From the NCBI GenBank assembly GCA_964057225.1, contig OZ059895.1:13392001-13456000 (forward strand): 64,000 bases of DNA, in the 5' to 3' direction. The notes beneath the pieces are model-generated. The model ran no database searches. It was not told the origin of the DNA and was given only the letters and a program-made list of their open reading frames with translations. This DNA is from Auanema rhodensis. Its lineage: Eukaryota > Animalia > Nematoda. Made by a program: the position numbers and the translations under genes. Below are positions 6,887-51,909 of this stretch, piece by piece. Every line of letters begins with the position of its first letter. Position 1 is the first letter of the stretch.

Positions 6887-7252
6887 CGTTCCATTATGCT
6901 CCTACGTATATTGAACAGACCATTGTAGTCTGCTCAACTACGCGTATAGTATTCCATAAGTGTAGCGGTATGGAAACAGAGCATAAGGATTACATAAGAT
7001 AAGGAAATATATAGGTTTATTATACACAATACAATATCATTACAATACAATAACACAAGTATAAAGTAAACTACATTTACAAGACAAAGACTAATATATA
7101 AGATTAACTAAGTTAGATGCAAACCGTCCATGGGCTTGCAAAGGGGCGAACTCCCGAATAGGGGCATGAGGGAAGGCGGTGCCATTCCTCATTCCTCTAG
7201 TCGGTCTGGCTCTAACCCTGCAGTTACATATATAGAGTCTCCGAATGGAACG
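6887..7252 (-). repeat. Family B 3' LTR (366 bp)
   Basis: Direct repeat of 18594-18959; 9-bp terminal inverted repeats CGTTCCATT...AATGGAACG. Confidence 0.95.
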
Positions 7253-7265
7253 TGCCCTTTTTCAA
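7253..7265 (-). other. Polypurine tract of element B
   Basis: TGAAAAAAGGGCA on the minus strand immediately before the 3' LTR. Confidence 0.7.
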
Positions 7266-7952
7266 AGATTGTCGCGACCTCGCGATATTTTAAACAAAAA
7301 TTTGGGCTTATATGTAACTGAGTTTTAGAGTTCAATTGTTTTAGCTTCACAATAACTATAGTATGATAGAGTTTTAGTTAGTATACAAACAAAATTACAA
7401 TAATTTATAAGAAGGGTTCAATATAATATGAAGTGACGATGAATTAGAATATTATTAATTTCATAAATTAATTATCTTAATATTCAAGCATTTCCTAATA
7501 GAGATTGTAGAATAAGGGGCTAGTAATGAATGGGAATATGTTATTATTTTGACTAATGGTCTCAAGAAGTACTCATTTCTAAATTGAACCGAGATTATGA
7601 TTTAATAATGTGTCTCCATATGTCTCCCAGAGTGAATCCTTGATTACTAATGGAGACTACCACTTAAGATGAAATTGTGGTTGATACGCCTACCAGTGTT
7701 TATCTCATCTTATTTGGAGAGGCACATGGAGCTCGGATGGTTGTCAAAATGTCCTCTAGTCCGCATAGGATTACGGTAACTTGGAACCATTAGTCATAAC
7801 ATCTCCTCGTTTAGAATTTGCCTTATTTTTCCTTTCTCAATCTCTATTAAATGCTATTTTTATTTTGAATGTTATTTAGTATTAATTTTTTTTTTCTCTA
7901 ATTCATCGTTATTTTGTTACAATAATTTAAATAACGTAGCATTATCTTGTTG

Positions 7953-13900: not shown

Positions 13901-16661
13901 CATTTGGGTACTGTGGTAAGAGAATGTAATTGCCAGTCGTGGTGTGGAAGATTGGCTGTTTAAAACAAGAAGATATTTGCTTCGGTATCTCTTTTTGATC
14001 GATTACAAGGGCTGATTGAGTGGTTGGTAACAGAATAATGCCGTCTCCAATTATCGCATCATATTCACTCATGTCGATATAGTTGCATCGATATTCATAA
14101 GGCTGTTTCTCCCATATGATGATTGAGGTATCTGATGCACATTCTCCATGATGCGCTAAGCATCCTTCAGTATTTAGTATTAAATTGGAGATTATAGTTT
14201 CATCTGGCATCCGTGTCATAGCCCCTCTTTCGATAACCAATCTGGCTTTCTCTTTACATAGTTCATTATTAAAAGATCGGCCTGGCGAGAAGGAAGGCTC
14301 GTCAGTTGCATATGTTATGCTGTCGATCTTCTTTAATTCACTCCAATTCCATCTTCTATCTCTCACTGCCAGTCTGCATTCTGCAGCTGGTATCTTTTCA
14401 ATTCTCGCTATCGTTGTATTGGTATCTCTAAGGAACAAAAGGTCTCTGATACACATTTTATGAATTTCTTTGGAGCATCTCCATGCATCCCATTCATGTG
14501 CCGTTTGATTCCTTGTATAAAGATGAACTTTTGTTCGTAAGATATGCTTTATTGGTGGTAATAAGCATTTTCGGAGAGATGGGGGACGGAGAAGGGCTCC
14601 TCCAGTAGCTTTAGTACATAGCTGGTATGCTTCAGCTGTTGTAACCAGTGATAAGATTACTGATAAAGCTACGGCTAAAGTCAAAGGAGATATCAGAGTC
14701 AAATTATTGACTCTTGAGCCTCTACCTCTGCCTCTATTGTTGTTATTTCCCCTAAAGGTACTGTTATTTCTCTGTCTATTATTGCTCATTTCTTGATTTT
14801 GTGATGCATTGTGGCTTCTTTGATACCCATTTTGATTTTGATTCTGATAATTTCGACCGCGGTCACCAAAATTGCGGTTCCTAGCAAATGGGTTTTGGAA
14901 ATTCCAGCCTTTTTGATTTTTTGAAAATTTATGATAATTTTGATTGTTTTGAAAGTTTGGATGATAATTGTTATAATTATTATTATAATTTTGATAATTT
15001 TTATTATTAAAAGATTGATAACCTCTTGCCATACCTCTCCCACCATTGTTTCTGCGCGGGGGGAAAGTTCTTTCAATTGCGTTAACCAATAGCGCCTGAG
15101 GGTCTGCTACTTGGTTTGCAATTGATTCCTCCCAGCGAGCACTATCAACAGCCTCAGCAAAAGTTTTGGGTTTTGCTCGAATTACCCCTGGGCGTATCGT
15201 ATTTTTCAAGCCTCTCAAAAATGTGGACCTCAGAATGTGATCTTTATGAGTATCACTATTAGAGAAAGCATTTAAGCTGAGGTTTCTTAACGTTTGTGCA
15301 AAACCATCAATTGATAAATCGCCTTGAGTGCTGTTTTGAAGTGTGATAAGGGCAGGGTCTTGATTGTATTCGGGACACAGCTTGGATGTTAACTCTTCTA
15401 TTAGGGTAACCCAAGGTCCAGCTGTTCTGACCTTGTCAGGTAGCTCTAAATAAGCTTCCTCTGCTCTATCATTTTTCAATAGTAATGGTAAAATAGTTAG
15501 TCTTTCGGGCATCACTAAGCCTAAGGCGTTAGAAAAGGTATTAAACTTTGCCACGAAATCTCTAAAGTTACGACTTCCGTCGTATATGGGGCAATAAGGT
15601 GAGCTTAATGCGTGCGCAATGGTAGATTTACCAGCTCCCGGAAGACGTGGTGTCTCCGTCATGGTTGGTATATCCTCAGGGTATGTGCGAGATGACGTAA
15701 TCCCTTTACTGCCTGAGCTTCTCGCCGTTAAGTTCTTACCTCCCTTTTTCGAGTTACCAGATGTTGGATAACTAATGGTAGGGGCGGCTGAGGAGAACCG
15801 CTTCCCTGGGAGTTTGATAACTCGACTCGTTGCCTGAGGCGTCGAATGTATTGAAACGCTTGAACTGGGTATAGCGCTATCTGACTTATTAAGGGTTGGG
15901 TTGGAGGATACGTGAAGAGAGTTATCAACTTGTTCTGTTGTTACCTCCCCTGGAGACAAATTCAAAACTTTTATTAAGCGAGCTGTCAAAGATTTCTTAC
16001 TTTTGAACTTATCAGTAGTTAGTGATAAGGGCAAAACTTCGGTAATTTCCTGATTTGGTTCTACGGGATTATTAGAGGTTGAGCGCCTACGCGGTGTATT
16101 AGTTTTTCTTTTATTAATCTTTTTAGAATCAAGCTTTTTCGAATCAAGCTTATCAGTGATAACTGATAAGGGTGATTTGCGAATAGTGAGAGATGAGGTT
16201 TTATTAAGTTGTGAGTTTTCTGTCGGAGTGGAAAATGCCTGCGGTGTTAGAGTTAGTTCAAAAGAAGATGCAAGATCGTTATCAGTATTAACTGATAAAG
16301 TTGATAAGTTTAGGTGGGGGGTGGCTGGTGAAGTATTAGAGGTTATTTGTTTTGGTTTTTGAATTTTTTGAATCTTTTTATTACTTTTAAAAGAGTGTAC
16401 CTTTGGAGTTGAAGCTGAAGTTTGAATATTGTAGTCCTGAATATAGAAATCAGGGTCCTCCTCGGTGTTGTCCGGAGGTGAATACGTGCCTTCTCGAGGA
16501 ATGAAGGTTTTCTCGACTTTGGGTTTTACCTCTTGTTCAGGCTCTTCAATCTGAACACTGAGGAGTCGAGTGCGGCTTCTGGTTCGACTGGCGACTGCGA
16601 TGTCGTCACTGGACTCAGAAGGGTATAGAGCAGGGACGGCCGAAGAGTATCTTCGTGCCAC
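7953..16661 (-). CDS. Gag-Env(gB-like)-PR-RT-RNaseH-IN polyprotein of element B (start uncertain: GTG at 16661, first ATG at 15662)
   Basis: Gag capsid motifs (YDGS.., QGDLSIDGFA..FLRGL); signal peptide 14628-14696; furin RDKR 13836-13847; TM 11841-11903; protease LWDSGS near 11575; RT YLDD 10245-10256; RNase H ESDGS..IEALG; integrase HHCC, DDE core and GPY motif. Confidence 0.95.
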   Translation of the reverse strand: MARRYSSAVPALYPSESSDDIAVASRTRSRTRLLSVQIEEPEQEVKPKVEKTFIPREGTYSPPDNTEEDPDFYIQDYNIQTSASTPKVHSFKSNKKIQKIQKPKQITSNTSPATPHLNLSTLSVNTDNDLASSFELTLTPQAFSTPTENSQLNKTSSLTIRKSPLSVITDKLDSKKLDSKKINKRKTNTPRRRSTSNNPVEPNQEITEVLPLSLTTDKFKSKKSLTARLIKVLNLSPGEVTTEQVDNSLHVSSNPTLNKSDSAIPSSSVSIHSTPQATSRVIKLPGKRFSSAAPTISYPTSGNSKKGGKNLTARSSGSKGITSSRTYPEDIPTMTETPRLPGAGKSTIAHALSSPYCPIYDGSRNFRDFVAKFNTFSNALGLVMPERLTILPLLLKNDRAEEAYLELPDKVRTAGPWVTLIEELTSKLCPEYNQDPALITLQNSTQGDLSIDGFAQTLRNLSLNAFSNSDTHKDHILRSTFLRGLKNTIRPGVIRAKPKTFAEAVDSARWEESIANQVADPQALLVNAIERTFPPRRNNGGRGMARGYQSFNNKNYQNYNNNYNNYHPNFQNNQNYHKFSKNQKGWNFQNPFARNRNFGDRGRNYQNQNQNGYQRSHNASQNQEMSNNRQRNNSTFRGNNNNRGRGRGSRVNNLTLISPLTLAVALSVILSLVTTAEAYQLCTKATGGALLRPPSLRKCLLPPIKHILRTKVHLYTRNQTAHEWDAWRCSKEIHKMCIRDLLFLRDTNTTIARIEKIPAAECRLAVRDRRWNWSELKKIDSITYATDEPSFSPGRSFNNELCKEKARLVIERGAMTRMPDETIISNLILNTEGCLAHHGECASDTSIIIWEKQPYEYRCNYIDMSEYDAIIGDGIILLPTTQSALVIDQKEIPKQISSCFKQPIFHTTTGNYILLPQYPNDTNIHVLIEREYTKLPAKRDKRAIAECTVELNKEWIQKQEDFETLILNICPYPFLRPVMSNPGIYQIIPLIKARRAVNPSYSIIDWVSAHPEKFYFFLRSPVSDKSIQRFLQTYEIHDPEEAILYFLAQKELAATTRGAIRYLTSQQLLEQIGDRLTAHEFDEKLLEKDGSYRERAESIAMELAYTPVIFENNLSVPSRQEVLKSFVNMPPIRPTLTTDNADERIVLRNTLYLYHNLMTLRVIRPNKTAAAVDDEKFRQLTINVPDTNKLYRDKDSNYGISMGPHPRIQTPSADTRQLLIKTFLPLLEDIETPPYLTRRLSLTTTTDKPASLVQETTISYTTRIPTTTIVDTTTAVITTTLSPTTLATVTDTASRTLRKQRTSSPPVETREIQAQATYTASKVNNEIQFNLNVSRRIAQDHLQYTTTLIQEELQKHFMESYESICEIQNRYLELWRSILHIEPTIAMRTILGREDIAARFVGSDIVHVHICLPLQPKAVYHNHKINDTCYLETPVITEDERLYFAAPGSRDLLTHGKEIDCEHVPTDVYYQNGEWININGSVEVKPISLFDKAQYHQLTPLKFTGANLYTNLSLRVYSMSTAIAYGASLASIRQNHVLHTIHNDPKITSAFNLLKKGSDYISKAAEFTTSAWTSVKQFLIGSIERTLIFIGSIVTIAAVLIILFVVAKFWFFRATPLTVMHVHEIDNEPPGYEETLELVSRPDQQMPDNIMKQYYPALVTFIPIAIPFVASIASAETKLPLIYISVEDKLILALWDSGSSVSYVRLSTLKYLNMAENVKKRHLVAMAANKSTFTFYGKINLVIEIAGYEIEHTFLVSNDRDCPAPALIGLDFMKALDSENIDVSLKPSKKRLEIGNNAIPLIGNESIKHTEITVNIINLRTKTLKPDEEAPIPIKTDKPLESNEVVVLGDSGSALKSLYPTAFRDTSGVYVMFRNNTDETIAMEANSVIGQAIIGEIPACEPFKHKPILPYVPPEADWESKLPYFPRDFIKDLDLENADLTKEEKHELTKIIESHREAFLNEDRKIGLFKGSIEHTIPLRTDMDMPKPRITRIPLGKQEEIEKQVKEMLEQGIIEPSTSLFNSPVVLVKKKDDTYRFVTDFRALNNVTRKQTYVIPSISDIVDLAAGAQFFSNFDLVSGFFQISLRKSDRPLTAFTTTSGTYQYKRMPMGLCGAPHTFQTAVRYLQSKCSCKLFVYLDDLLVISDTREQHLKDIDDLLQAVEELGMKIKLKKCAFAQPEVKFLGLIVGRQGIKPDPQKVAAIQDYPAPKNATGVRAFLGMVGFFRKFMKDFARIASPLYDLTKADTEFKWENKHQEALDLLKRSLIQAPVLSPPKSDRLFIVESDGSNIAIGAVLLQPEDPKQPLKNLHPIAFASRKLVKAERNYAPIEIEALGLVYALNQFRTYILGTHTICITDHRPLTSLMTRRDLFGRLAKFQLVIQEYDIEIKYRAGQLNKVCDALSRYIGEEANDAKPETKKKKMEEIHINAINTPTIKEIQLSTPWIKRTIAEIEYRAQKNMTANDRYCVINDLLYTKPTDKKPQPAIVIPQEHPIIEEIIKVFHEDPTIAAHQGIIKTKEAILRRFYWTNMQNDITIFIKNCIKCAQRKKDPHSMTVQPIGHFEIPSKPFERVHMDVMGPFPPSKRNCTYVITMQDAFTKWSTTIAVPQITTEITIDRFLRHFVYIFGPPHRLITDRGSNFVSKKFEEMCTKLGIKHEPTLPHQKNSNGQVERLHRTLEEGLTHYLKEDLSDWDTVLPKITFAINNIQHATTGIAPYIALFGKECRMSMDAELPETITKIQEISEELLQRRPDMDKRDEIIKNRIAKNQENAKKKKDRTQRAHHRDIQPGDMVMTTIKSHQIGQKLRKSYDGPYEVINVEGSKVQIRNSSGKLQDIHKDNLKIFSPASQNISYNTRARFRESQAEEDSDIEIIEVINRNNKDSIDTEPEDENEDEIWLPRNEEE

Positions 16662-17082
16662 TTTGGAATCACTCTTGGTTTGGAAAAACCGCGAGTGTTT
16701 CGTTATATGGGGGATGTTGACGTTGAATGAGTGACAAGAAATTCAGGTCGGTTATAGGGAAAAGTAAGAAAAGTTTGAAGATTGAGACGTGGCGTCTTTC
16801 GCCGAGAATCGTTATTAGATGAGAAAGAGTTTTAAAATCTTGGCCTGAGATCTGGCTCCGCCTATCTACCGTATTCTCTTTTCTTTATTCTATTTCACAG
16901 ATGTTCATCAATTATAAATTTTGTTGGTCTTCGCTCTTTCTAGCCTCAATCTTAATACTTTACTCTAATTGAATTCTTGAAAGTATGAGAGAGATTTTCA
17001 GTCGTTTTATGTCCCCTTTTTATGCATAAGAATCTTTATATTTGTAGAGCTGAAAAAAAAAAAAAAATAAATAAATCAAAGA

Positions 17083-17616
17083 ATGGCTTATGAAGGTCTA
17101 TCGGGAATGACTTTTGTCTTGAGGAAGCTGTACGCTGACCTCGTCTTGTATGATCAAGACGAAGTGTTAGCTTATAGGCCGCACCCAGACATAATTAAGA
17201 TGGTTGGTTAAAACAAAGAAACATGTTATCTTAATAAGAATTTTTAGTTTATTGAGGATTTAAAGATGCATTATCTGGGAAGGGGATTAGTAAACTTCTC
17301 CCTAATGCAGGAAATAGCGGATGAGGTTGCAGCTATCCGGCGATGGTGCCTCACCGACTTGTGCGCGCATTGGTATGAAAACCCAAATCTGGTCGCATCC
17401 CCTTGGAATTGGTATGAGCATAAGTCTCATGATTTTTATGATTATATGTCTAAAATTTTGTTTAAAATTTATTTATTTTATGAACAGTCTCCTATGGGCT
17501 TATTGCTAAGGACCTCTGCGGATTCAGTGTATTCGCAGTATTTAGAGCCTAGCGATGAGCCCATCTCACAGCCTATAGAATTTGTGAGACAGTTGCATTT
17601 TAAATGGGGCTTTTAA
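17083..17616 (+). CDS. Predicted two-exon antisense accessory gene of element B (join 17083-17202, 17248-17616; 162 aa; unknown function)
   Basis: 40-codon ATG exon, then a 45-nt GT..TTTTTAG intron spliced in frame to the 116-aa ORF; AATAAA at 17633-17638. Confidence 0.65.
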
Positions 17617-18572
17617 CAATTGTTTTATATATAATAAATACTTAATTTCACTCATTTGTTCTCTCTCTCTTTTTTTTTCATAACACAAACTTTGGTCGAG
17701 CTTATTAATAAAGAAGGAGTGCGTGCGCCTTGGGAAAATGGCTCATGTGCACGTTGATTATTAAAAGCCGTGGGCGATTCTTTTTCGGAATGATTATGGC
17801 ATGCTAATGAGATTCCGAGAATATTTAAAAAGATTGCTCATTTTACTAATGGACTGAGACCAAAGCTCGTTTATAAAACGCAATTTTTTTCTTTAAACCA
17901 TTCTACTAATTTATAGAATATTACAATATGAATACTACGGTAGGTGTGTGGGAATATCTTATGATGTTAGCAACAAAAATGAGCTGAGAAAGGTGACACA
18001 TTCTACGGAGAAGAAAACATCCGTAGCCCATGTGCTTTCGCCAAAATGACCTGACAGGCAATAAAATTTGTGCCAGGATTTTTCGGACTAGTGTGGTCTA
18101 TTCTCACAATCAAAAAAAAATAAAAACCGAATAACGGCTCCCGCAAAAATATTTAGTTAGCATGCTCTTTTACGCCTGAATTTAACTTTCAAATCTCTAG
18201 TCCTGACCACAATAAAATATTAAACTTTGTGCGCTTTCAAAATTTCATTCTAACTCCTCGTTGCCAAATAATAATGTAATCAAAATTTCGTTTGGTGAAA
18301 TTGTCCCCTATTTCGATCCAAACGTCCTCAAAAAAAAATGCAAGAGAAGCGGTGCAGGATACGGTATTATAAGGGTGGACACTCAGACGGTTTTATGAGT
18401 GGGGACAGCGGGTGAAATTTCAAAATTATATAGTCCTAGCTCTCTGAAAGAGAGATCCCTTGTACCTGCACCTTATACAAGTTGGCGCCCTCATTATGTT
18501 GCTAACCGTGGAGGAAGTTTTAATTTAGATATCAAAATATGGACTTTTTATGCGAGTTTTTGCGACAAAAAT

Positions 18573-18593
18573 GAGTTCGAGGTGGAACCTCCA
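18573..18593 (-). other. Primer binding site of element B (tRNA-Gln; 13-nt core plus 8-nt T-arm match)
   Basis: TGGAGGTTCCACC then TCGAACTC directly after the 5' LTR. Confidence 0.85.
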
Positions 18594-18959
18594 CGTTCCA
18601 TTATGCTCCTACGTATATTGAACAGACCATTGTAGTCTGCTCAACTACGCGTATAGTATTCCATAAGTGTAGCGGTATGGAAACAGAGCATAAGGATTAC
18701 ATAAGATAAGGAAATATATAGGTTTATTATACACAATACAATATCATTACAATACAATAACACAAGTATAAAGTAAACTACATTTACAAGACAAAGACTA
18801 ATATATAAGATTAACTAAGTTAGATGCAAACCGTCCATGGGCTTGCAAAGGGGCGAACTCCCGAATAGGGGCATGAGGGAAGGCGGTGCCATTCCTCATT
18901 CCTCTAGTCGGTCTGGCTCTAACCCTGCAGTTACATATATAGAGTCTCCGAATGGAACG
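18594..18959 (-). repeat. Family B 5' LTR (366 bp)
   Basis: Direct repeat of 6887-7252. Confidence 0.95.
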
Positions 18960-25893: not shown

Positions 25894-26012
25894 AGCTTAC
25901 GGCACCCGGGATTCCCAAGCCGTCTCCGATCCAAGTACTAACCGGGCCCAACGTTGCTTGACTTGCCAGATCGGACGGGATGGCGTACTTTCAACGTGGT
26001 ATGGTCGTAAGC
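25894..26012 (-). rRNA. 5S rRNA
   Basis: Array copy. Confidence 0.95.
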
Positions 26013-26422
26013 GAAAATACCTGATATTCAATGATTTACATACTTATCCTCGTTATTGTTTTTTTTCCAATTTCATGTTAGTTATGTAATTTTCTACGTT
26101 ACATCTAAATTCCTCGATGATATCAAATCTTATGAGCTCCAAATACAATAAATTAAAAAAGGTTTCACAGTTGTATAGTGTTAAAACAATGTTTGTTTCA
26201 ATAGGAAATAGATAGAAACAGTAAAGTTAAGATGAAGGTTCATAAACTACTGGTTTATAACTGTAATATAGAAATAAGATTGAAGATATTTTGATGCCTT
26301 GGGTTGAGCTATCTAAGTAAAACTGCTAGAAAATTAAAAACATTTGTTACGGAAGAGATAAAATTGAAAATCAGCTGCATTGCGTACTTTCAACGTGGTA
26401 TGATCGTTAAAAAAAATTGAAA

Positions 26423-26951: not shown

Positions 26952-27070
26952 AGCTTACGGCACCCGGGATTCCCAAGCCGTCTCCGATCCAAGTACTAAC
27001 CGGGCCCAACGTTGCTTGACTTGCCAGATCGGACAGGATGGCGTACTTTCAACGTGGTATGGTCGTAAGC
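26952..27070 (-). rRNA. 5S rRNA (element A2 inserted 65-68 bp upstream)
   Basis: Array copy (1 SNP). Confidence 0.95.
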
Positions 27071-27138
27071 GAAAATACCTGATATTCAATGATTTACATA
27101 CTTATCCTCGTTATTGTTTTTTTTCCAATTTCATGTTA

Positions 27139-27477
27139 CGTTCCATATTGGTTCCTAGGGTTCCGGCTAGGTAACCATATGGACTTTAATAGTGTGAATG
27201 CCATTGTAAAAGTAACAGAGAGTAGAGAAAAAGAAGTTTATTCAGAATATGGAAATACAATTATAAAAGCAAAATACAATAATCAAATAAATGAAACTAC
27301 ATGTTATGAGAAAGCCAACCTAGTTGCTTTCTCAGGGGTTTATATAGCAAAATATTAATTACAAATATAATTGAATTTATACAAAAAGTAGTTCAGGTCT
27401 AGTTTCTTATTGAATTCTATTAACCAAAAGTCGGTTGACGTTGTCAACCGCCTTCTTTATAAGACACGTATGGAACA
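27139..27477 (-). repeat. Family A 3' LTR (A2)
   Basis: Direct repeat of 38517-38855. Confidence 0.95.
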
Positions 27478-27701
27478 TGCCTTATATTGAAAAAGTAGCT
27501 GACCTCAGCTATAAGAAATTAGACCTTTTAAAGAAAAGAAACAAAAGAGAAAAATATATATATAAATGAATTAGAATTAGAATACTAGAATAGGAATAAT
27601 AGTGTAATAGGAATAATATTAAAAAAAAATGAAAACAATATAAAAAGAAAAAGAAAAGAAAAGAAAAGAGAAGAAAACTATGAATTCACCTCGTGCAGCT
27701 G

Positions 27702-28337
27702 TTATCCTTCTTCCTCCTCGATTTGTCCCAGCTGGAAGTCGGTCGCGGGTTGCCGGTCGGCGACCGTCCATATGTGGAACAGGCTGACGTCTGTTAGCAG
27801 TTCCGTCGCCTGGCCTGCTATCATCATTTTCTTTCTTTTCTGGTCCGGAGTGGTGGCGCGCGTCGCCATTAGTATCCTTAAGGCCTGGCTGATCAGGTCT
27901 CCCGCCTTCCTAATCGACTGGTTGGTCGATTCCATCATACTTTCTTCTGTCCAGCTCTTGTGGATCTCTTCCGCGGCCCATCTTGGGATGAGATCCGCGC
28001 TAGCTACATTTTCGGAGGCTGGATAGCCTAGATCTTCGCGTAGTTTGTTGATGGTGGCCTTGGTGCGGGCAGTGGCCTCGGACCAGTTTTGCGCCATTTT
28101 TGCCATCTCTTCTTCATCATTGTTACATGAACATTGTAACCTTTCCAGAGTCTCTATTAATAGAGTAACTCTGGCTAAATTCTCCGAAAATGATTGGAGG
28201 ATTCTTATCTTTTTAGTCCTGTTGTTTGTTGTCTCCAGTTGTTGTAGTTCTATCTGGAGCGAATGTATCTTGATCCACTTTTCCTTGATCATCGCGATAG
28301 GTGTCTCGCAGGCTGGTGGAGGGAAGACGAGTGCCAT
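27702..28337 (-). CDS. Accessory ORF2 of family A (211 aa, predicted helical, unknown function)
   Basis: ATG-initiated, intact in A2 and A3 with only conservative substitutions, GC-richer than its AT-rich flanks. Confidence 0.75.
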   Translation of the reverse strand: MALVFPPPACETPIAMIKEKWIKIHSLQIELQQLETTNNRTKKIRILQSFSENLARVTLLIETLERLQCSCNNDEEEMAKMAQNWSEATARTKATINKLREDLGYPASENVASADLIPRWAAEEIHKSWTEESMMESTNQSIRKAGDLISQALRILMATRATTPDQKRKKMMIAGQATELLTDVSLFHIWTVADRQPATDFQLGQIEEEEG

Positions 28338-28549
28338 TCTTGTGGTGCTGGGAGTTTTTCTGCTTGAGGTGAATTTTGAGCTTATATAGGGTGAAAAAAA
28401 ATAGGTAAGTATATATTTTGTGATACATAGATATTAAGATTGATGATTGGGGAAAACATTGTTTTTGTTGTTTGGGTAGCAGATAGAATGAATTATTAAA
28501 AAAAAATTAATTAATAAAGTTATTTTCCCAAAAAAGTTTCTATTTTTGA

Positions 28550-31500
28550 TTAAATGGTTGTTGTTGCTCCAATCACTGTTGAAGGTCGTTTCTTTCGTAC
28601 AACCGGTGTTTTTGGAGAATTGAAATGAGCATCAGGTATCTGAGAGCGTGTGAGCCTGTTTTTAGACTCTAAGGTGGGTATCACGCTGTTGTACCTTATT
28701 GGTACGTGGAATGGTTTTGGAGCGGTTATAGGATTTTTGTCTTCTATTCCAAGTGCCAACTTGAGGGCTGAGCTCCATCTTTTGGTTGTGGGTATCTCTT
28801 TACGTCTTTCTTCATAGAGCTCTTGCCTTGTTTCTTCTCCAATTTTATCGACAAGTTGTTGAAATAAGTTGTTTTCGTCCTTGTCCGTAGCTGACTTGTC
28901 TGCCGTATTCGGTCCGGTTTCTGGTTGATAATTGTCCTGTTGTGTTTCCCGCGTAATTTCCTGTGGTGCTCTTGTTTCTTGTGGTGTTATTGAAGGTCGG
29001 CTTTGTTCGTAGAATTCGTCCTCGTTGTCGCTTTCTGAATCAGAGATTGATGTTGCGGTGGGCGTGCTATTTTTAGCGCGCGTATTTTCCGTATCCTGCT
29101 GTGAGCCGTCGCTATAAATGGCGGGTGCGGAGTCGTTTCTGTTGTGCTCGCTTTCTTCGACGTTGTTATCGTCGGGTGGAAAGTATCTTATATTATTCTT
29201 GTGAGCTATAATCGTATTCCCTTCGCTATCTGCTAATATTACGTTATTTCCTTTTATTTCCTTGATTATATATGGTCCATCGCTTGTTGTTTGTAATTTA
29301 TTTGCTGGCTTTGCTCGCTTGACGAGTGCTCTATTTTCCACGAAGATCTCTCTTTCCTGCGTCCTGTGATTTTCGTCGTATTTCTTCTTCATTCTTTCAT
29401 TATTCAACTCTATCCTTTCATGAATCTTCTCGTGTAAGTCCGGGGCGTTCTTGATTGTGGCTCCTGGAGTTTCTAAGTCCTTATCTATTGGTAACCGAGC
29501 TGTTTGTCCAAACAGACAGTCGTAGGGTGGTGTGCGAGTAGTAGCGTTTGGTAGTCGATTCATCGTAAAAACAATTTTTGGTAGAATAATATCCCAATTG
29601 TCTTGGTCGTCATTAACGTAGGAAGTTAATGCTTCTTCCAGTGTTCTGTGTAGCCGTTCCACTTGACCATTTGCGTTTTTGTAGTATGGCATAGTTGTGT
29701 GATGTTCCGATCCAAGATTATCGCACATGCTTTTGAATTCGTGTGAGACAAAGTTTGATCCATTGTCTGTGATGATTTTCTTTGGGGGTCCGAAGACATA
29801 GAATAAGTGTGTCATAATAGCTGATACTATTTCTTCTGATGTCTGACGAATTAATGGTATCGCTATAATCCATTTGGAAAATGCGTCCTGTATAGATAAA
29901 ATGTATCTATTATCCTTTGCAGTTCTAGGTAATGGTCCTAGTATGTCCATGTGAACTCGTTCCCATGGATGTGTCACTGTTGGGAAGTTTCTCATTGGTT
30001 CAACTGTGGCTTCATGTGGGTTATTTTTCCTCTTTGCACAGTCGAGACATCTGTTCACATATCTTGTGATATCATCCTGTATTCCTGTCCAAGTGTACCG
30101 TCGCAAAATGGAGTCTTGAGTCTTATTGATTCCAAGATGTGCTCCGAGAATTGGGTCTTTATGAAATTTTTCTATAATTGGTATTGTGATTGCTGGATCG
30201 TTTGGTAGAATGGCTCGCGGAGTTTGTAAAGCTGTTTTGGGTTTTGCATACAGAGCGTCGTTCACAACGATATATCGATCCATTAGTTGCCTTCCTGCTG
30301 TTTTGTTCCGAATCTTTTCTTTTGTTTCCATGATCCATTCTGTATTGCCTTGGATGGTCCGAAGGTCCGTAATAGTTGAAATAGTCGAGATTTTGTGTGT
30401 AGGAGTTTCTTTTGGTTTCTTCTTTCTTTCCTTGGCTTCGTTGACTTCGTCTTCAAAATATCGTGAAAGTGCATCACAGACGCTGTTAAGACGTCCTGGG
30501 CGATACACTATCTCGATGTCGTATTCTTGTAATACGATTTGAAATTTTGCTAGCCTGCCAATGAGATCTTTTCTTGTCATGAGGCTAGTAAGAGGCCTGT
30601 GATCGGTAATGATTCTTATTGGTGTGCCTAGTATGTAAGTCCGAAATTGATGTACTGCGAAAGTGAGTGCTAAGGCTTCGATTTCAATTGGCGGGTAATT
30701 CCGTTCGGCTTTGTTCAGTTTTCGGCTGGCAAATGCAATTGGGTGAAGTGGTTCCTTGTCGTCTTTAGCCTGTAATAGTACTGCGCCAACTGCAATTATA
30801 CTTCCATCGCTTTCAATGACGTAAGGTCGTTTTGCTATAGGTGCTTGTAGTACAGGAGCTTGACAGAGTATCTGTTTAAGTTGTTGAAATGCTTGTTCTT
30901 CTGCATCTCCCCATTTGAAAGCTGTATCCTTTTTCGTGAGCTCATAAAGTGGTGACGCAATGCCTGCGGCATTCCTAATAAATCTGCGAAAGTAGTTCAC
31001 AACTCCCATAAATGCTCGAACTCCTGTTATTGATTTTGGTCTTGGATAATCTTGGATTGCTTTTACTTTCTGAGGGTCTGGTTTTATTCCTTCGTGTCCA
31101 ACAATGAATCCTAGGAATTTGACTTCTTGTTGTCCAAAGGTACATTTCTTAAGCTTGATTTTCAATCCTAGCTCTGCTGATGCGTTCAGTACTTCGTCGA
31201 TATCTTGTAAATGTTTCGTCGTTGATTCCGATATGAGAAGTAGATCGTCGAGATAGACGAAGAGCTTGCATCGTACGTGTTGTTGTAAATATCGTACAGC
31301 ATTTTGGAATGTGTGTGGAGCTCCGCAGAGTCCCATCGGCATTCTGCAGTATTGATAAGTTCCGCTCGTAGTAGTGAATGCGGTGAGGTGTCTATCTTCT
31401 GATCTAAGAGGGATTTGAAAGAATCCAGATACTAGATCAAAGTTACTGAAGATACGCGCTCCGGCTGCTAGGTCCAAGATGTCTTGAATGTTAGATATAA

Positions 31501-34500
31501 CGTAGATTTGTTTTTGCGTTATTGCGTTGAGTGCTCGAAAATCAGTCACAAATCTGTACGTTTTATCCTTTTTCTTGACCAATATTACGGGACTGGTAGT
31601 CATAGAAAAAGATGGCTCAATTATTCCTTGTTCTAACATTTCCTCCACTTGTTTTTCTACTTCTTCTTGTTGTGATAGAGGTATTCTGTACGTGATCTTG
31701 AAAGATGGAACTTTTCCTTCGATGATCGGGATGCTATGTTCCACTGGTCCTTTGAAAAGTCCAATATTGCGATCCTCGTTTAAGAAAGCTTCCTTGTTTC
31801 TGAGCACTATTTTCTTTAACTGTTGTCTCTCTAGCTGAGTAAAGATGGTGTTTGTTACATCGAGGTCTTTTATAAAGTCCTGTGGGAAGTATGGTAGTTG
31901 ATCTTCCCATCTTGCTTCTGGTGGCACATATTGTCCTTTTTGCTCCTCCGTGTTTTTCGGGATAGCGTAAGCTGTTCCAATGCCTTGATTTGTCTGTACT
32001 ACAATTGTGTCTGGAGAGATATTTGTAGCAAATATCTGAACTCCATATCCCGTTGGGGTGAAAGTAGTAGGGGCGAAACTCATTTTTCCTGTCCGCTGTG
32101 AGCTTCTAATGAAAGCTTGTTCGTAAGAGGCGGGATCGTCTACTTCCAATGTAAGCGATCTGGTTTCTCCTGGGTAGAACTGTTTAGTTTCCAGGCTTAC
32201 GACGTGTGCTATCGTGTGGTTCTCAGTCCATGGCGCGTAGTCTTGTGCTAAAGGTACTATTGTGTCTCCAATTAGTAGTGAATTTTGTAGTGGTCGTAAA
32301 GATGTATTTATTCCTATTTTGTTGAGAGCTTCTATGAAGTCTATTCCTAATAATATTGGTGCTGGGCAGTGGTTGTTGGCAGAAATCAGTACTTTGTGCT
32401 CGATTTCTGTCTTCCCGATAATAATTGGGATTCTTGTGTAGCCCAGGAAAGAAAATCGTGATTTGTTTGCTACAATGGCTGTTGTCTTTTCCATAACCAT
32501 TGTTGCTGCCGGTAGTTGTTGAAATGTACTTTCCTTCATGTATGATATAGAAGCTCCTGTGTCCCATAAAGCAGTAAAGATCTGATTGTGAATGGAGAGA
32601 GGTACGAAAGGTAGTCGTGATCCTCCGATGTAGTTAATCCTTGATTCTTTCATAGCGTACCGTGGTAGATAGGCGAAAAAGTCATTATCTGATAGTGGGG
32701 CGTCAGGATCATATCGAGAGGTTCTTGTATATAATTTCTCTTGCTGAGAAGTGACTAGTGGTTTTAATTCGAATTGTTTGTCCTCTCCTCTTGGTTCTTC
32801 GTCTTGTTCGTTGAATGTGATTTGATTGATTGGTATCCTTGTGGTACATGCATATATTTTTAATGCCCAAATGGTAACAGTTATGAGTCCTATTGTGACG
32901 ATGATTGCTCCAATAATAGCTAGTGTCCTTAGTATCCATGCTGTAATTGATTCTCCTATGTATCCAAAGAAATTTGTGATTTGTTTCTCCGCGTTGTTTG
33001 ATATGTTATCTGCTATCATTAATGTCGTTCCAACTGTTCCTCCTATAATTCCTATTGGATTCAGATTGGATAGTCCAGAATGTTTGAAGACTGGTTTCAA
33101 TTTTCCTGGCATAGTTGCTTGTAAAGATGCTAGGCTAGAGCCGTAGGAAATAGCCAGTGCCATTGGAAATGTTGACTCCGTGAGGTTTGAAAATATGTTG
33201 GAATTGTTAAACTTAATGTGATCAATTTTTACAGATGTGAGTTCATCTGAAAATGAGAAGTTAGTCACATTCAATGTTGAATTATCTTTCATCCATTGAT
33301 TGTTTTCTCTGTAGGGATCTGATGTAGCCATATCGCATGCTATGATGTGGGCAAATGGTGTTAAATCTCTTGATCCTGGTGTGATGAAGAGTTTTCCGTG
33401 ATGTTCCGTGTCTACCGGTGTCTCCAGGTAACATTTATCGTCTCGTTTGTGATCCGAGTATACACGTGTTACTTGTACAGGGGTGCATGGCATGACGTAA
33501 ATAAGATGTTCTCCAACAAACTTTGCTGAAATATCCTGTCGACGAAGCATAGTGCGAATTCCTATAGTCGGATTAATCTGCAGGATTGCCCACCAGGTAA
33601 GTAGCTGCTTATTTTGCATTCTGCATACGTTTTTCTTTGTTATTTGGAAAGATTGTAAGATTTCCTCCTCTAGTTTTGACGTAGAGTATTGGAGGTGGGA
33701 CCTTGTATCTTGTTGGCGTAGTTGATCGTCGTATTTTTGAATGATATCTGCTCGTGTTCGTAGGAAATTGAGGTGTGCTTGTGATCCAGTGTGAGATTTG
33801 ATTTCCTCAATCGGTTGGGTCGTTGTTGCTCGCTTTGTAGTAGTCCGAGTTGTTGGAAGTGTCCTAGTAGATTCCCTGCGGGATGTGGTGGTGAGAGGAC
33901 GTGGTGGTGGAGTTACTGGAGTTGTTGTACTCTGGTAATAATAATATCTCCTTGGTGTAGTTGTAGGTTGAGGTGGAGACGTCCGATGAGTAGTAGTTGT
34001 CGGGGCAGTTGTTGTGGTAGTCGATGTAGTGGTTGTGGTGGTTGTAGTAGTGGTGGTTGTGGGGGTAGCACCAGGTGACTCAATGAGCTGAAGATATGCT
34101 TGTTGAAATAATTTGCTGTCTTCATCCGTGATAGGTCTGATTGTAGGTTGATTTTTGGGCAACCCATAATTTTGTGCGTGTCCGTTGAAGATGAGGGTAT
34201 AGTTGGGAAAGACGATTGCTGACGAATTTGCCTGTTTTGTGAGATCTGCCCATTTCTTATTTTCTGTCTCTCTTTGTTCTTTTGATATCCGAGTTAGACG
34301 ATTGTTTTGCTCTAGATAATTAAGAAACTCCTGTATTTGATCCATCTGGGTGTAGAACTGTGTGTCAGTGCGTGATCTAGGCAGTTTTGTCATCCTGGGT
34401 GGGTACAGTTGGTACAGATAGTCCTCCATTGATGGAATAGTCTCTCCTGTTGCCAGAGTGGTAGGTGTGTGAGCTATTTCAATTGCTATTTGTCTTGCTC

Positions 34501-37390
34501 GGTCGAGATAATCGCCTTCGTAGTTGAGTAGACGTGTGGCAAAGTCGCTGATAGTGATTTGCTTGCTGAGTTTTGCCGTGATCTCTGATGGCAGTAGGTG
34601 TTCGATGGCAATTTCCGTAGAAAGTCGAATCTCAGCTTCTGCAAGTGTGTGCAGGATAACCATGTTGATGTCAGTGTAGTTGTGCCATAAGAGTCGGTTC
34701 TTCAGTTTTGATGAATCTAGTTGTAGGAATTTGATGAAACCTATGTGTACGCTAGATGTCTTGAGATATTCCATAAGGTTATAAGCGTTGTCTAGTCTTT
34801 TCCTATTTCGATATGTCTGGTACATAGGTAGTATACCTGTAGAACTGTCTGTGAGGCGAAGTGATTTGTAGATAGTGATATTGAAGAATCTCGTAGGGTA
34901 TTCTTGGGGTGCCATCCTCTTTTGACGTCGGTGTGTTTTTAAGTCCTTGATGGAAATGTACGTACCACTATCAGTTGAGTAGATGCTTGTATTCATACAT
35001 CTTGTAGCTGTAGGGTCTGGCGTGTTGTTTTTGAGAATGAATGCTCCTTGTATTTCCGAGATTAATACAGTATCATTGTTGATTAGTGCTTCGAATTTCC
35101 CTAATGTCGTGTAGTCGCAATTTCGATGATCATTGGGTGGGATCCATGTGATAACTGCGTTGGTGGTGTTGCATACTCCTTGTTGCTTAGTACATCCTTC
35201 AGTGTTGATGAATAAGTCGGAGATTATAGTGTCATCGTGTAGGCTAGTCATCATTCCTCTTTCTAAGGTGAATCTTGACTTGGTTGTGCAAGAGGATGCC
35301 CAAAACGATTTTGATTGTGTACTAGATGGCATAGGGGCTTTGAATAGTCCTGGTGCTTCGCGATTGAGGTCGTTATCCATGTGTCGTCTTTCTTGAATGG
35401 CTGTTTGGCATTCTTGTGGAGTGGCTGGTTCTATTCGGAGTAATGTAACGTTATTTTCCCTGATGAAGAATAAGTCGTGGGCGCACGTTTTATAGATTTC
35501 CTTGGCGCATTTCCATGCTTCCCATTCCTTGTAATTCATATTTTCTGCGAATAGTTCCACTGTTTTTATCTCGACTCCGTCCTTGTGTGCATAGTCTGAG
35601 CAGGTGGTTGGGCGAGGTGGTTCGAGGAAAATACCTCCTCGTTTGCCAATGCAGAGTTGATAGGTGTTGTCTGCCTGGCAAGGTATCATAGATAGGGCGA
35701 TGACGGATAAGAATAGCGGTATGAACGGAAGTGTCTTCTTTGTTTTGATTGTTTCCTTTTCTACTTTGTTAACGTGAAAACGGACGCTGGGGCTTCTTGT
35801 GCGATCTCTGTGCCTGTTATGTGGTCCATATGAAGTGCTGCGATTTCGTTGTTGAAATCCGCGATCAGGACAGTTTCCGCGGTTGTATCGGTCGTTTCCT
35901 CTGTGCTCCTGTCGATCATTCCTTCTGCTATCATATCGATCGTTTCCTCTGCTGTTGTATCGATCATTGTATCTATCGTACCGTTGGGGGCTACGATAAT
36001 TGTTGTATCCTTGTTGATATCCATTGTTTCTGTTATCCTGTCTGAAGTTGTGACGGTTATTTTGTCGATCCTCTTGGTATCTTGGTGAGCGGTATCCTCC
36101 TCTTCTTTGATTCCATTGCTCTTGTGGTTGTTGTGGTCTTGATTGATTTCCATAGAATGTTCTTGATTGGTGTGTTTGTGATCCGTCATAGATTTTCTCC
36201 TGTTGTGATGCTCTCATGTGGTTTATGAGACCATTATTAATCTCTAGTTGTTCCACGTCTTTAATCAAGTTGTTGACCAAGAGCGAAGGATCCTCGTCAG
36301 CTTCCACAGTTTCGGCAATAGTCACGGCTGCATCAAAGGTGATAGGGCTGCGGTTATTGACATGTGTTCTTAAAGTCTTTCGTAGTCCTCCTAAGAATGA
36401 AACTCGTAGTATTCTTTCGTCGGCTGTCGAGTCCATGTTGCATGATTCGTAGGCAAGGTTTCTGCAGCGTTGAGCGAAATTTTGTACCGTTTCGTGCTCT
36501 CCTTGTTTCAAATGAGTGAGTTTTGTGAATGCTGCATCTCTCTTTTCTGGAGGTTGTAGTTTCTCCGATAGTATGCGTTTGACGTGGTTCCATCCCTGGC
36601 GTAAGTCTTCTGCTGGTATAGTTCGAAGAGCTTCAGCGGCTCTATCCGTTCCGAGAAGTAGATAGAGATGGGAAAGTCTCTCGGCAATAGGGACTTGAAG
36701 GGCATCGAAATATCCTTCTAGTCTTTGCATGTAGAGGTTGAATGGAACCGATCCATCATAAAGCGTAGGTTTGTGATGGCGAATAGAAACGTTGTGGGCT
36801 CTTGCAATAGGAGAGTTGTCTTGCTCCATCTGCTCTGCCATTTGAGGGCGACTTCTCTGCTCTGTAACATTCGAAGTCAAATTTACGTTATTGTCTGACG
36901 AAGAAGAGACAGGAGACAGAGAGTGCCCGTGCAAAGATTGATCAGTGGAAGAGGGAGAGTTTCTAGGAATAGGAGAGGTGAGGATTTCCGCATTTGCGGT
37001 TTGAACAAGGCGTTGAGGAGAAGTGTGATTTGGAGGACAAGTGTTAGTGCCGGTATTAACAACTGTTTTTGGAGAGTGAGAAGAGCGTTTGGGCGTAGAT
37101 TTACTGGATGATGTTTTATTCTTATTCAAGCTAATTGCATGCCTAGTAGTTTTAATAGCAGTAGTATAAAGTTTCTTAGCAGTTAGCGGTGTACCCGGAA
37201 TAGGGGGTAATTTCTTTGATTTCGCGTTCGTTTTCGGATATTTCGCATCTGGTCGGAATGCATCCGGTGGTCCTCTTTTTCTTTGGTTTCTATGCAGTGC
37301 TGCTTCCATTGTCTGAGTTTTCTCTGCGCTATTCGTAGCATTTTGGGCAATATTTCCCGGCGGAGGGTTTTGATTCGCTGCGTCAGCCAT
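28550..37390 (-). CDS. Gag-Env(gB-like)-PR-RT-RNaseH-IN polyprotein (2946 aa)
   Basis: Gag (YDGS, LKQGEHETVQNFA, FLGGL); signal peptide ~35672-35734; furin RRQKR 34916-34930; Thr-rich stalk; TM 32861-32923; LWDTGA; YLDD 31244-31255; RNase H; HHCC/DDE integrase with GPY. Confidence 0.96.
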   Translation of the reverse strand: MADAANQNPPPGNIAQNATNSAEKTQTMEAALHRNQRKRGPPDAFRPDAKYPKTNAKSKKLPPIPGTPLTAKKLYTTAIKTTRHAISLNKNKTSSSKSTPKRSSHSPKTVVNTGTNTCPPNHTSPQRLVQTANAEILTSPIPRNSPSSTDQSLHGHSLSPVSSSSDNNVNLTSNVTEQRSRPQMAEQMEQDNSPIARAHNVSIRHHKPTLYDGSVPFNLYMQRLEGYFDALQVPIAERLSHLYLLLGTDRAAEALRTIPAEDLRQGWNHVKRILSEKLQPPEKRDAAFTKLTHLKQGEHETVQNFAQRCRNLAYESCNMDSTADERILRVSFLGGLRKTLRTHVNNRSPITFDAAVTIAETVEADEDPSLLVNNLIKDVEQLEINNGLINHMRASQQEKIYDGSQTHQSRTFYGNQSRPQQPQEQWNQRRGGYRSPRYQEDRQNNRHNFRQDNRNNGYQQGYNNYRSPQRYDRYNDRYNSRGNDRYDSRRNDRQEHRGNDRYNRGNCPDRGFQQRNRSTSYGPHNRHRDRTRSPSVRFHVNKVEKETIKTKKTLPFIPLFLSVIALSMIPCQADNTYQLCIGKRGGIFLEPPRPTTCSDYAHKDGVEIKTVELFAENMNYKEWEAWKCAKEIYKTCAHDLFFIRENNVTLLRIEPATPQECQTAIQERRHMDNDLNREAPGLFKAPMPSSTQSKSFWASSCTTKSRFTLERGMMTSLHDDTIISDLFINTEGCTKQQGVCNTTNAVITWIPPNDHRNCDYTTLGKFEALINNDTVLISEIQGAFILKNNTPDPTATRCMNTSIYSTDSGTYISIKDLKTHRRQKRMAPQEYPTRFFNITIYKSLRLTDSSTGILPMYQTYRNRKRLDNAYNLMEYLKTSSVHIGFIKFLQLDSSKLKNRLLWHNYTDINMVILHTLAEAEIRLSTEIAIEHLLPSEITAKLSKQITISDFATRLLNYEGDYLDRARQIAIEIAHTPTTLATGETIPSMEDYLYQLYPPRMTKLPRSRTDTQFYTQMDQIQEFLNYLEQNNRLTRISKEQRETENKKWADLTKQANSSAIVFPNYTLIFNGHAQNYGLPKNQPTIRPITDEDSKLFQQAYLQLIESPGATPTTTTTTTTTTTTSTTTTTAPTTTTHRTSPPQPTTTPRRYYYYQSTTTPVTPPPRPLTTTSRRESTRTLPTTRTTTKRATTTQPIEEIKSHTGSQAHLNFLRTRADIIQKYDDQLRQQDTRSHLQYSTSKLEEEILQSFQITKKNVCRMQNKQLLTWWAILQINPTIGIRTMLRRQDISAKFVGEHLIYVMPCTPVQVTRVYSDHKRDDKCYLETPVDTEHHGKLFITPGSRDLTPFAHIIACDMATSDPYRENNQWMKDNSTLNVTNFSFSDELTSVKIDHIKFNNSNIFSNLTESTFPMALAISYGSSLASLQATMPGKLKPVFKHSGLSNLNPIGIIGGTVGTTLMIADNISNNAEKQITNFFGYIGESITAWILRTLAIIGAIIVTIGLITVTIWALKIYACTTRIPINQITFNEQDEEPRGEDKQFELKPLVTSQQEKLYTRTSRYDPDAPLSDNDFFAYLPRYAMKESRINYIGGSRLPFVPLSIHNQIFTALWDTGASISYMKESTFQQLPAATMVMEKTTAIVANKSRFSFLGYTRIPIIIGKTEIEHKVLISANNHCPAPILLGIDFIEALNKIGINTSLRPLQNSLLIGDTIVPLAQDYAPWTENHTIAHVVSLETKQFYPGETRSLTLEVDDPASYEQAFIRSSQRTGKMSFAPTTFTPTGYGVQIFATNISPDTIVVQTNQGIGTAYAIPKNTEEQKGQYVPPEARWEDQLPYFPQDFIKDLDVTNTIFTQLERQQLKKIVLRNKEAFLNEDRNIGLFKGPVEHSIPIIEGKVPSFKITYRIPLSQQEEVEKQVEEMLEQGIIEPSFSMTTSPVILVKKKDKTYRFVTDFRALNAITQKQIYVISNIQDILDLAAGARIFSNFDLVSGFFQIPLRSEDRHLTAFTTTSGTYQYCRMPMGLCGAPHTFQNAVRYLQQHVRCKLFVYLDDLLLISESTTKHLQDIDEVLNASAELGLKIKLKKCTFGQQEVKFLGFIVGHEGIKPDPQKVKAIQDYPRPKSITGVRAFMGVVNYFRRFIRNAAGIASPLYELTKKDTAFKWGDAEEQAFQQLKQILCQAPVLQAPIAKRPYVIESDGSIIAVGAVLLQAKDDKEPLHPIAFASRKLNKAERNYPPIEIEALALTFAVHQFRTYILGTPIRIITDHRPLTSLMTRKDLIGRLAKFQIVLQEYDIEIVYRPGRLNSVCDALSRYFEDEVNEAKERKKKPKETPTHKISTISTITDLRTIQGNTEWIMETKEKIRNKTAGRQLMDRYIVVNDALYAKPKTALQTPRAILPNDPAITIPIIEKFHKDPILGAHLGINKTQDSILRRYTWTGIQDDITRYVNRCLDCAKRKNNPHEATVEPMRNFPTVTHPWERVHMDILGPLPRTAKDNRYILSIQDAFSKWIIAIPLIRQTSEEIVSAIMTHLFYVFGPPKKIITDNGSNFVSHEFKSMCDNLGSEHHTTMPYYKNANGQVERLHRTLEEALTSYVNDDQDNWDIILPKIVFTMNRLPNATTRTPPYDCLFGQTARLPIDKDLETPGATIKNAPDLHEKIHERIELNNERMKKKYDENHRTQEREIFVENRALVKRAKPANKLQTTSDGPYIIKEIKGNNVILADSEGNTIIAHKNNIRYFPPDDNNVEESEHNRNDSAPAIYSDGSQQDTENTRAKNSTPTATSISDSESDNEDEFYEQSRPSITPQETRAPQEITRETQQDNYQPETGPNTADKSATDKDENNLFQQLVDKIGEETRQELYEERRKEIPTTKRWSSALKLALGIEDKNPITAPKPFHVPIRYNSVIPTLESKNRLTRSQIPDAHFNSPKTPVVRKKRPSTVIGATTTI

Positions 37391-38495
37391 CTTTGTTGGT
37401 TTCCTGGAAGGAAATTATTAACCAACGAAGACTGAGCTTATATTATACAAAACGTAAGAGACAATATGGGGTTGGTATGCGCGACTCCTGTTCCTGTCAG
37501 GGGGCCAGCCTGCAGCGGGTCTCTAGTCGGAGAATAGCCTGGTCAGGTTCATACACGAGTCCGCAACTACGTGTGACCTTTAGCAAAGGACCAAGTTCTT
37601 ATCTCTCGAAGAGGCATGAGATATGAGACAGTGGTTTGTGTATTGCTCCTTTTCAGTCATGGACAAGATCAGGTACACAGGCTTCTCATACTCACTTTTC
37701 CAGACTTCTCTTACCTAAGCAAACCCCCAAAAGACGTTCCCTTTTAACGTTACTTCTGTTCCCCTGGGTCTTGCTAGGTGGGACCACTCAACTTCAAAAT
37801 ATTCTTTAATTCTCATATGGGACCAAAAAGGGTTAATTTCAAATGATTGCGCGTCTTATATCAAAAAGTGTACGCCTCCGCGCGATGTCCCGAGAATGTC
37901 TGGTATTGTTTCTTACGGGGCTTTCTCATAAAAATGCGTTAGATATCAAGAATAGTGGTTTTGTTTATGAATCAATGTTTTCAGAATGATTTATGAATAG
38001 ATTTTCAAAATTAGCTTGTGAAAAGAAGTTTTCAAGATGACTTATGGGTAAGTGTTGCAATATGAATAAATGTCTTTAAGATATTTCATGAATTGATAGT
38101 TTTTAATATTATTCGTGGTTAAATATTTTAATATGCTTGTTCCAAAAAGAGTTTTTATGCATTATATGCTTTTAACATACAGGAAAGTAGAGGAATAAAG
38201 TAGGAATATAGATTGTAATAGATAATATGTATAAGACATTTTTTTTCAAATAGATATATCAGAAATGATGTTAGAAGAATGATATTTAGAGATAAATTCG
38301 AATTACTAGATTAAATTGAAGTTTTTGTTTTAGATACAAAATTGACTTGAAAGTTTGAAATATAAAATTAAATTAGAATTTTGGATATGAAATCAAGATA
38401 AATTTTTAGAGTAAAAAGGATTTCAAAGAAAGAGAAAGTAATTTAAAGGTGAGAAAAGTAGCGGCAATGGTCCATAGAGATTCGTCCCTTATAGA

Positions 38496-38516
38496 CGAAT
38501 CTCGGTGGAACCTCCA
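38496..38516 (-). other. PBS (tRNA-Gln) of A2
   Basis: TGGAGGTTCCACCGAGATTCG adjacent to the 5' LTR. Confidence 0.88.
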
Positions 38517-38855
38517 CGTTCCATATTGGTTCCTAGGGTTCCGGCTAGGTAACCATATGGACTTTAATAGTGTGAATGCCATTGTAAAAGTAACAGAGAG
38601 TAGAGAAAAAGAAGTTTATTCAGAATATGGAAATACAATTATAAAAGCAAAATACAATAATCAAATAAATGAAACTACATGTTATGAGAAAGCCAACCTA
38701 GTTGCTTTCTCAGGGGTTTATATAGCAAAATATTAATTACAAATATAATTGAATTTATACAAAAAGTAGTTCAGGTCTAGTTTCTTATTGAATTCTATTA
38801 ACCAAAAGTCGGTTGACGTTGTCAACCGCCTTCTTTATAAGACACGTATGGAACA
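38517..38855 (-). repeat. Family A 5' LTR (A2)
   Basis: Direct repeat of 27139-27477. Confidence 0.95.
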
Positions 38856-51888: not shown

Positions 51889-51909
51889 TGGAGGTTCCAC
51901 CGAGATTCG
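51889..51909 (+). other. PBS (tRNA-Gln) of A3
   Basis: TGGAGGTTCCACCGAGATTCG. Confidence 0.88.

Follow-up and report, generated by a model that had tools for sequence, protein, structure and literature searches.

Clustered insertions of an envelope-bearing Ty3/gypsy element upstream of 5S rRNA genes in a nematode array: possible tethering to the Pol III machinery

Family A is, to judge from its sequence, a nematode Ty3/gypsy retrovirus with an envelope and with recent activity, and it is inserted repeatedly in the 5S rRNA gene array covered by the window, that is, by the whole analysed stretch of 64 kb. The family-A junctions are clustered non-randomly, and by position: four of five sites fall at -54..-69 relative to the 5S start and are co-oriented with the gene, whereas the fifth is antisense, at -389. 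The cluster represents three to five events at a single locus. Our preferred explanation, with a probability of about 0.5, is that the copies cluster because Pol III machinery on the 5S genes tethers the integration complex. The hot spot is real and statistically strong, but the earlier note, which described the insertions as always co-oriented and all within about 16 bp, overstated it, as only one flank of the solo LTR had been counted.

The window contains 40 5S rRNA genes (RF00001), the only family found by Rfam. The array totals 21,551 bp of 529-bp units and is broken up by five retroelement pieces, A1, B, A2, a solo family-A LTR and A3, where B is a sister family. According to Rfam, the array switches strand at the solo LTR, from minus before it to plus beyond it. 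The reference unit (25894..26422, minus strand) consists of the gene, a T8 tract (-404..-397), a 5S-like fragment, the spacer and an A8 tract (-54..-47), these being exactly two 8-base A/T tracts per unit. The 5S-like fragment, present in the spacer of each unit at -399..-365, corresponds to the 5' part of the gene, with 30 of 40 positions matching from -399. One unit of 399 bp (47666-48064) lacks most of its gene and apparently resulted from recombination between the 5S gene and the spacer fragment. In Caenorhabditis, the 5S units are usually linked to a spliced-leader RNA gene; none was found here by Rfam in the 5S unit, over the whole array in the window. No LTR insertion is mentioned for the C. 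elegans and C. briggsae 5S cluster in the available part of PMC8961926.

A2 (27139..38855, minus strand) is a full-length element of 11,717 bp with identical 339-bp LTRs (27139-27477 and 38517-38855). It is flanked on both sides by GTTA, a 4-bp duplication of -68..-65 (27135-27138 and 38856-38859). A3 (51550..63288, plus strand) is also full-length, points the same way as the inverted part of the array and is flanked by the CTAA/TTAG duplication of -69..-66 (51546-51549 and 63289-63292); a short deletion interrupts its frame near codon 2629, 3' of the integrase core. A1 is represented by its 5' part (1..6581, minus strand, 5' LTR 6243-6581), which runs past the window edge, with the frame open for 1709 codons up to the edge, and is flanked by TCCA at -57..-54 (6582-6585). 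The solo LTR (49300..49638, minus strand), which sits where the array inverts, has CCAA at its 3' flank (-58..-55, 49296-49299) and is co-oriented with the gene at this end. For A1 and the solo LTR, with one flank each, the 4-bp target is assumed. All four sets of letters and positions coincide with those given in the earlier note. The four sites form two groups about 11 bp apart. That the gene itself is left unbroken had been pointed out before, and the flank at -1..-53 is intact at these four sites as well.

At its 5' end (49638) the solo LTR stops precisely at the LTR terminus and is joined there to the opposite strand at unit position -389 (flank 49639-49642), 22 bp behind the preceding 5S gene and within the 5S-like spacer fragment. 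At all five family-A junctions the 3' LTR end points toward the nearest 5S gene, a pattern noticed post hoc. The orientation of the array changes exactly at this solo LTR with its mismatched flanks (49300-49642). Since the units represent many distinct SNP haplotypes, and rare variants are common to units on either side of the flip, the array seems to be real and the inversion local; an assembly error at the 339-bp LTR may also have caused the flip. The inversion likely arose in one of two ways: either a co-oriented LTR at -55..-58 would have recombined with an antisense LTR at -386..-389, or the uncoupled ends of one integration would have struck different sites. The recombination model predicts a reciprocal junction to the right of the window. 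With either of them, one of the ends made by the integrase is located away from the upstream cluster. Family-A insertions are tied to the inversion of a ribosomal array.

SNPs in the LTRs are private to each family-A copy, whereas the LTR pairs are identical within A2, A3 and B. Between A2 and A3 there are 85 differences in 11,693 aligned bases; of the codons concerned, 31 are synonymous and 13 nonsynonymous, which looks like the pattern of a replicating lineage. The elements are young, as seen from the identical LTR pairs and, for A2 against A3, from the codon differences. A2 and A3 clearly inserted independently of each other: we rejected a single duplicated insertion, as the two junctions move in step by one base from A2 to A3, and the surrounding units differ in spacer haplotype. 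This part of the earlier claim of independent insertions stands; A1 and the solo LTR, on the other hand, might go back to one insertion that duplicated 5 bp.

This bears on the possibility that there is no real targeting, and that the copies build up in a tolerant or silent array, with shared ancestry and rearrangement inflating the cluster. The single-event description of A1 and the solo LTR fits it, as do the antisense junction elsewhere and the rearrangement at the solo LTR; moreover, transposable elements are relatively frequent in 5S spacers (according to the available part of the review PMC10946416), and the window was chosen because it looked unusual. However, 5 of 339 positions separate the A1 LTR from the solo LTR, while in each of the complete elements, A2, A3 and B, the two LTRs are identical and the target duplication is 4 bp long, and the shifted, complete duplications of A2 and A3 lie in different unit haplotypes.

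The clustering was assessed by simulation with position and strand uniform within the unit, counting junctions that span 12 bp on the same strand. For four of four junctions the P-value is 5e-6, for four of the five family-A junctions 4e-5 (7e-5 if restricted to the spacer), and for four of six, when B is counted, 1e-4. If A1 and the solo LTR are one event, which leaves three of four junctions in such a cluster, the P-value is still 1.7e-3 (2.7e-3 for the spacer only). Restriction to the spacer increases the values for four of five, three of four and four of six by less than a factor of two. We consider the absence of targeting improbable. Selection alone is an unlikely source of the 16-bp cluster, since the elements are young and the loss of a gene would be cheap in an array of more than 40 copies.

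The array is also enriched for family A as such. Four sites per 21,551 bp would correspond to 9,000–19,000 copies, or 109–217 Mb of element, in an assumed genome of 50–100 Mb, and as such a density is not possible genome-wide, the excess must be in the array. Reads from three studies contain the stretch in question: at least half of the words of the unit-plus-LTR stretch were found in 11 of the 20 listed runs. In four of these 20 runs, reads were placed over all contigs, with the A1 LTR, the spacer and the B LTR as the query. The bin means of depth are about 260 in the family-A internal part against 24,000–64,000 in the spacer in run X3, about 150 against 32,000–51,000 in X2, and 8.6 against 196–628 in X8, although in X8 the gap narrows to 4-fold at the single site where it is smallest. 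The internal part is thus about 20-fold lower or more by bin means in all three, and the LTR-to-internal ratio is 1.3–3.1. As contig depth is not a copy number, and the read samples carry spacer variants other than those in the window, these figures give a weak hint that family A is low-copy with few solo LTRs. No LTR-to-spacer joints are present among the joints listed for the four runs, the query being without the gene and the gene-proximal 53 bp; recurring joints with GATC/TA fillers in run X1 look like ligation artefacts. At three diagnostic sites, the LTR in all four runs is of the A2 type, and their spacers are unlike the window at several near-fixed sites. In the 6243-6886 region, the family-A element is more alike between samples than the 5S spacer is.

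The gene facing the 3' LTR of A2 (26952..27070, minus strand, +1 = 27070; RF00001) is preceded by an intact flank, -1..-68 (27071..27138, minus strand). Reading of this flank yields a putative TATA-like TATGTAAA at -30..-23, then the A8 tract, and, at its distal end, the target duplication of A2. No motif is shared by the targets, and neighbouring sites are 1 bp apart, so position weighs more than sequence. The earlier note had preferred tethering over sequence recognition: non-random, position-based insertion is indeed supported by the differing letters, the 1-bp shifts, P-values from 4e-5 to 2e-3 and the density of copies in the array, while tethering itself is only plausible. The docking of the integrase, be it on TFIIIB, TFIIIC/TFIIIA or Pol III, would be asymmetric, and the enzyme would cut the first accessible DNA beyond the footprint, on one helix face. 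Both the sparing of -1..-53 and the 3' LTR ends pointing at the nearest gene would agree with such docking. Tethering is favoured by the presence of the sister family B in the same 5S array and by distances that match those of the known Pol III-tethered elements TRE5, Skipper-2 and TRE3, as given in the available part of PMC5911963. The antisense junction outside the cluster, one of five, counts against it, as do the position of B at -358 and the small number of events at one locus. The step of about 11 bp, taken earlier for one helical turn, is present as two groups of sites, but it fits any protein-bound or bent DNA, a nucleosome included, and does not point to TFIIIB in particular.

The main rival to tethering is DNA shape. 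Here the integrase would favour bent DNA 5' of an A-tract or a nucleosome edge, with no Pol III protein involved, and the array would merely offer accessible target DNA in many repeats. The A8 tract was overlooked in the earlier note, and it accounts for all five junctions equally well: each of them, the antisense one included, has an A8 tract beginning -1 to 11 nt past the target in the element sense. Among 1058 site-strand pairs of the unit 26 qualify, hence the outlier would fit by chance in about 2.5% of cases, calculated post hoc. Since four of the five junctions use the same tract, the real information is this one extra match, obtained after the fact. The AA/TT periodicity of 10.5 bp in a 42-bp window peaks at -66, the top of the unit; however, widening the window to 63 bp abolishes it at -67 (45th percentile), and it is unremarkable at -56. 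The unit length, 529 bp, is approximately three nematode nucleosome repeats, which also speaks for a role of chromatin. Ty1 and foamy virus use fixed nucleosome faces (the part of PMC5911963 on integration). On the other hand, A8 tracts are common in AT-rich genomes and would leave the enrichment in the array unexplained, and B has no such tract. We regard DNA shape acting alone as rather unlikely. Both models may hold at once, as for Ty1, with the tether selecting the locus and chromatin the base.

If the complex is tethered, some part of it should do the docking. The structure model of the integrase has pLDDT mostly 80–97 over the zinc finger, the core and the SH3-like domain, with a few weaker loops. 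Searches by sequence and by fold retrieve ordinary Ty3 and foamy-virus integrases, the best PDB sequence match being 7q5b (E 1.5e-22), and neither Pfam nor the structure model contains a chromodomain or another known targeting domain. Hence the chromodomain route of Ty3 is not used, and a short tail motif of the Ty1 kind may be the better analogy. Beyond the integrase C-terminal domain, family A has a tail of 238 aa without a Pfam match, disordered except for one predicted helix at about aa 2847-2873 (pLDDT about 78–80). The docking part would likely be this family-specific tail with its helix, by analogy with the short motif of Ty1. The tail of B is 89 aa long, and those of nine relatives with a complete end are 45–212 aa, two truncated or fused models of relatives having been set aside. 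Neither in B nor among the 120 listed proteins was anything similar to the family-A tail found. Such divergence would be expected if A and B use different sites, but just as much if the tail plays no part; together with the lack of a known targeting domain, the lack of conservation in B or the relatives counts against tethering.

Another protein that might be involved is encoded by an orphan ORF of 211 aa, helical, between pol and the 3' LTR (27702..28337, minus strand). It is intact in A2 and A3 (61912-62712 for the region in A3) and was not found in B. Sequence, profile and atlas searches produced no credible homolog and no DNA-binding family; one database match was rejected as repeat-inflated, and the predicted structure is a low-confidence model. 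The integrase or this protein could recognise a spacer motif near -80..-45 directly, with cutting at a loosely fixed distance. The four upstream sites do lie in one 30-bp neighbourhood, and the ORF was not found in B, the family whose site differs. We nevertheless find direct recognition very unlikely: the targets have no common motif and the letters at the outlier differ, the spacer varies among samples having the same family-A LTR, and the orphan ORF has yielded no DNA-binding family.

Family A belongs, by its gene content, to a known clade, the nematode Ty3/gypsy errantiviruses with GAG-ENV-POL order, a gB-type envelope and a tRNA-Gln primer. Its LTRs flank GAG-ENV-POL, with the RT-RH-IN order within pol. 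In A2, one frame of 2954 codons (28550..37414, minus strand) gives profile matches to GAG-ENV-PR-RT-RH-IN. The gB-like envelope at aa 1239-1319 matches PF00606 with E 2e-6, below the Pfam cut-off, and a transmembrane stretch is located at about aa 1489-1523; the closest relatives also carry gB / class III-type envelope families. The first 12 bases of the primer-binding site of A2 (38500..38516, minus strand) are the exact reverse complement of the tRNA-Gln 3' 12-mer of Caenorhabditis errantiviruses, as given in the available part of PMC13524379, and the same 12-mer is present in B. Among the matches listed, the closest named proteins are from Caenorhabditis and Diploscapter, 43–52% identical over pol. 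In a quick maximum-likelihood RT/RH tree of 32 of 122 rows (A, B and 30 of the 120 listed matches), A and B are sisters (SH-aLRT 97, identity 71%) within the Caenorhabditis/Diploscapter clade (98). A rhabditid nematode is accordingly the most probable host. Cer1 was rejected as the closest relative: as far as a supplement legend tells, its proposed envelope ORF has few conserved residues in common with gypsy Env. None of 80 metagenome loci has the family-A type of envelope; their best segments are 29–45% identical, with no 5S match and one tRNA. No related loci were found in viral contigs, and ten prokaryote pattern matches were taken as chance. Most LTRs have TG...CA ends. The LTRs of family A end in TG...CG and those of B in CG...CG, with short terminal inverted repeats (e.g. 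27139-27147 and 18951-18959).

Family B (6887..18959, minus strand), 71% identical to A over RT/RH, has identical 366-bp LTRs and an intact frame of 2929 codons, and is co-oriented with 5S. Its envelope matches PF24664 with E 6e-15, above the cut-off. The insertion has produced a TTTT duplication at -358..-355, 53–56 bp behind the preceding gene; thus B may target the downstream side of the 5S gene. In runs X2, X3 and X8 the internal depth of B is about 2–5 times that of A. A wider scheme, which we put forward tentatively and consider less than probable, is that the sister families A (upstream) and B (downstream) partition the 5S unit via unrelated integrase tails, that a lineage of envelope-bearing animal retroviruses evolved Pol III tethering independently, and that its LTRs invert the ribosomal array.

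The clade of viruses is known, and so is the targeting of Pol III genes; their combination did not turn up in the literature searched. For distance-based targeting of Pol III genes, the table of the review PMC5911963 has yeasts and social amoebae only. An animal LTR element with such a 5S or Pol III window was found nowhere in the literature searched, subscription papers, including the original description of the nematode elements, which may bear on the point, being outside its scope; within this scope, the remark of the earlier note that no env-bearing animal gypsy element was known at 5S arrays is borne out. A supposed 5S-specific gypsy family of Arabidopsis does not appear in PMC5887818. 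If the tethering is real, the safe-harbour strategy would extend to retroelements of the infectious type, family A being an animal example that is young, intact and equipped with an envelope, and the tail would offer a short candidate targeting motif for metazoan Pol III factors.

The nematode errantiviruses with an HSV/gB-type envelope, described with the GAG-ENV-POL order in the available part of PMC13524379, resemble family A in gene order, the gB-like envelope, the tRNA-Gln 12-mer and a length of about 12 kb. Family A differs in the longer integrase tail and the orphan 3' ORF, and its relatives, among the 30 of 36 nematode rows of the master table considered, are listed on several chromosomes. 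In particular, Caenorhabditis elements with the same primer are scattered in this way (in C. latens, four on four chromosome records), which argues against a restriction to 5S throughout the clade. The terms '5S rRNA', 'rDNA' and 'target site' are absent from the available main text of that paper.

Ty3 of S. cerevisiae and Tj1 of S. japonicus share with family A the Ty3/gypsy integrase and insertion within a narrow stretch upstream of Pol III genes, among them 5S in the case of Tj1 (available part of PMC5911963). Ty3 inserts 2–3 bp upstream of the start, with its chromodomain on Brf1 (bioRxiv 2021.07.27.453949, in part), whereas family A inserts 54–69 bp upstream and has an envelope; both Ty3-type features, the chromodomain and insertion a few base pairs from the start, are absent from it. 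Ty1 of S. cerevisiae inserts outside the initiation complex, and a 16-residue C-terminal segment of its integrase binds AC40/AC19 (PMC10050235, in part). Unlike family A, it is a Ty1/copia element that targets nucleosomes upstream of the gene (PMC5911963, same part), and the likeness of the tails would be in the proposed role.

The remaining parallels are more distant. As tabulated in PMC5911963, TRE5 of Dictyostelium inserts 37–41 bp upstream of 5S, but is a non-LTR element in the opposite orientation; Skipper-2 and TRE3 insert 8–23 bp and 40–150 bp downstream of tRNA genes, which may be compared with the -389 junction and family B; and DGLT-A inserts in either orientation at 13–33 bp, in an amoebal host. 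In animals, Mutsu of zebrafish, listed as inserting into 5S itself, and the 5S-associated Jockey of Tribolium freemani are retroelements tied to 5S arrays, but both are non-LTR. Gypsy elements occur in fish 5S spacers with no defined window, according to the available part of a 2024 review (PMC10946416). Four of the five family-A junctions, at this one locus, keep a narrow spacing from a Pol III gene while their target letters vary.
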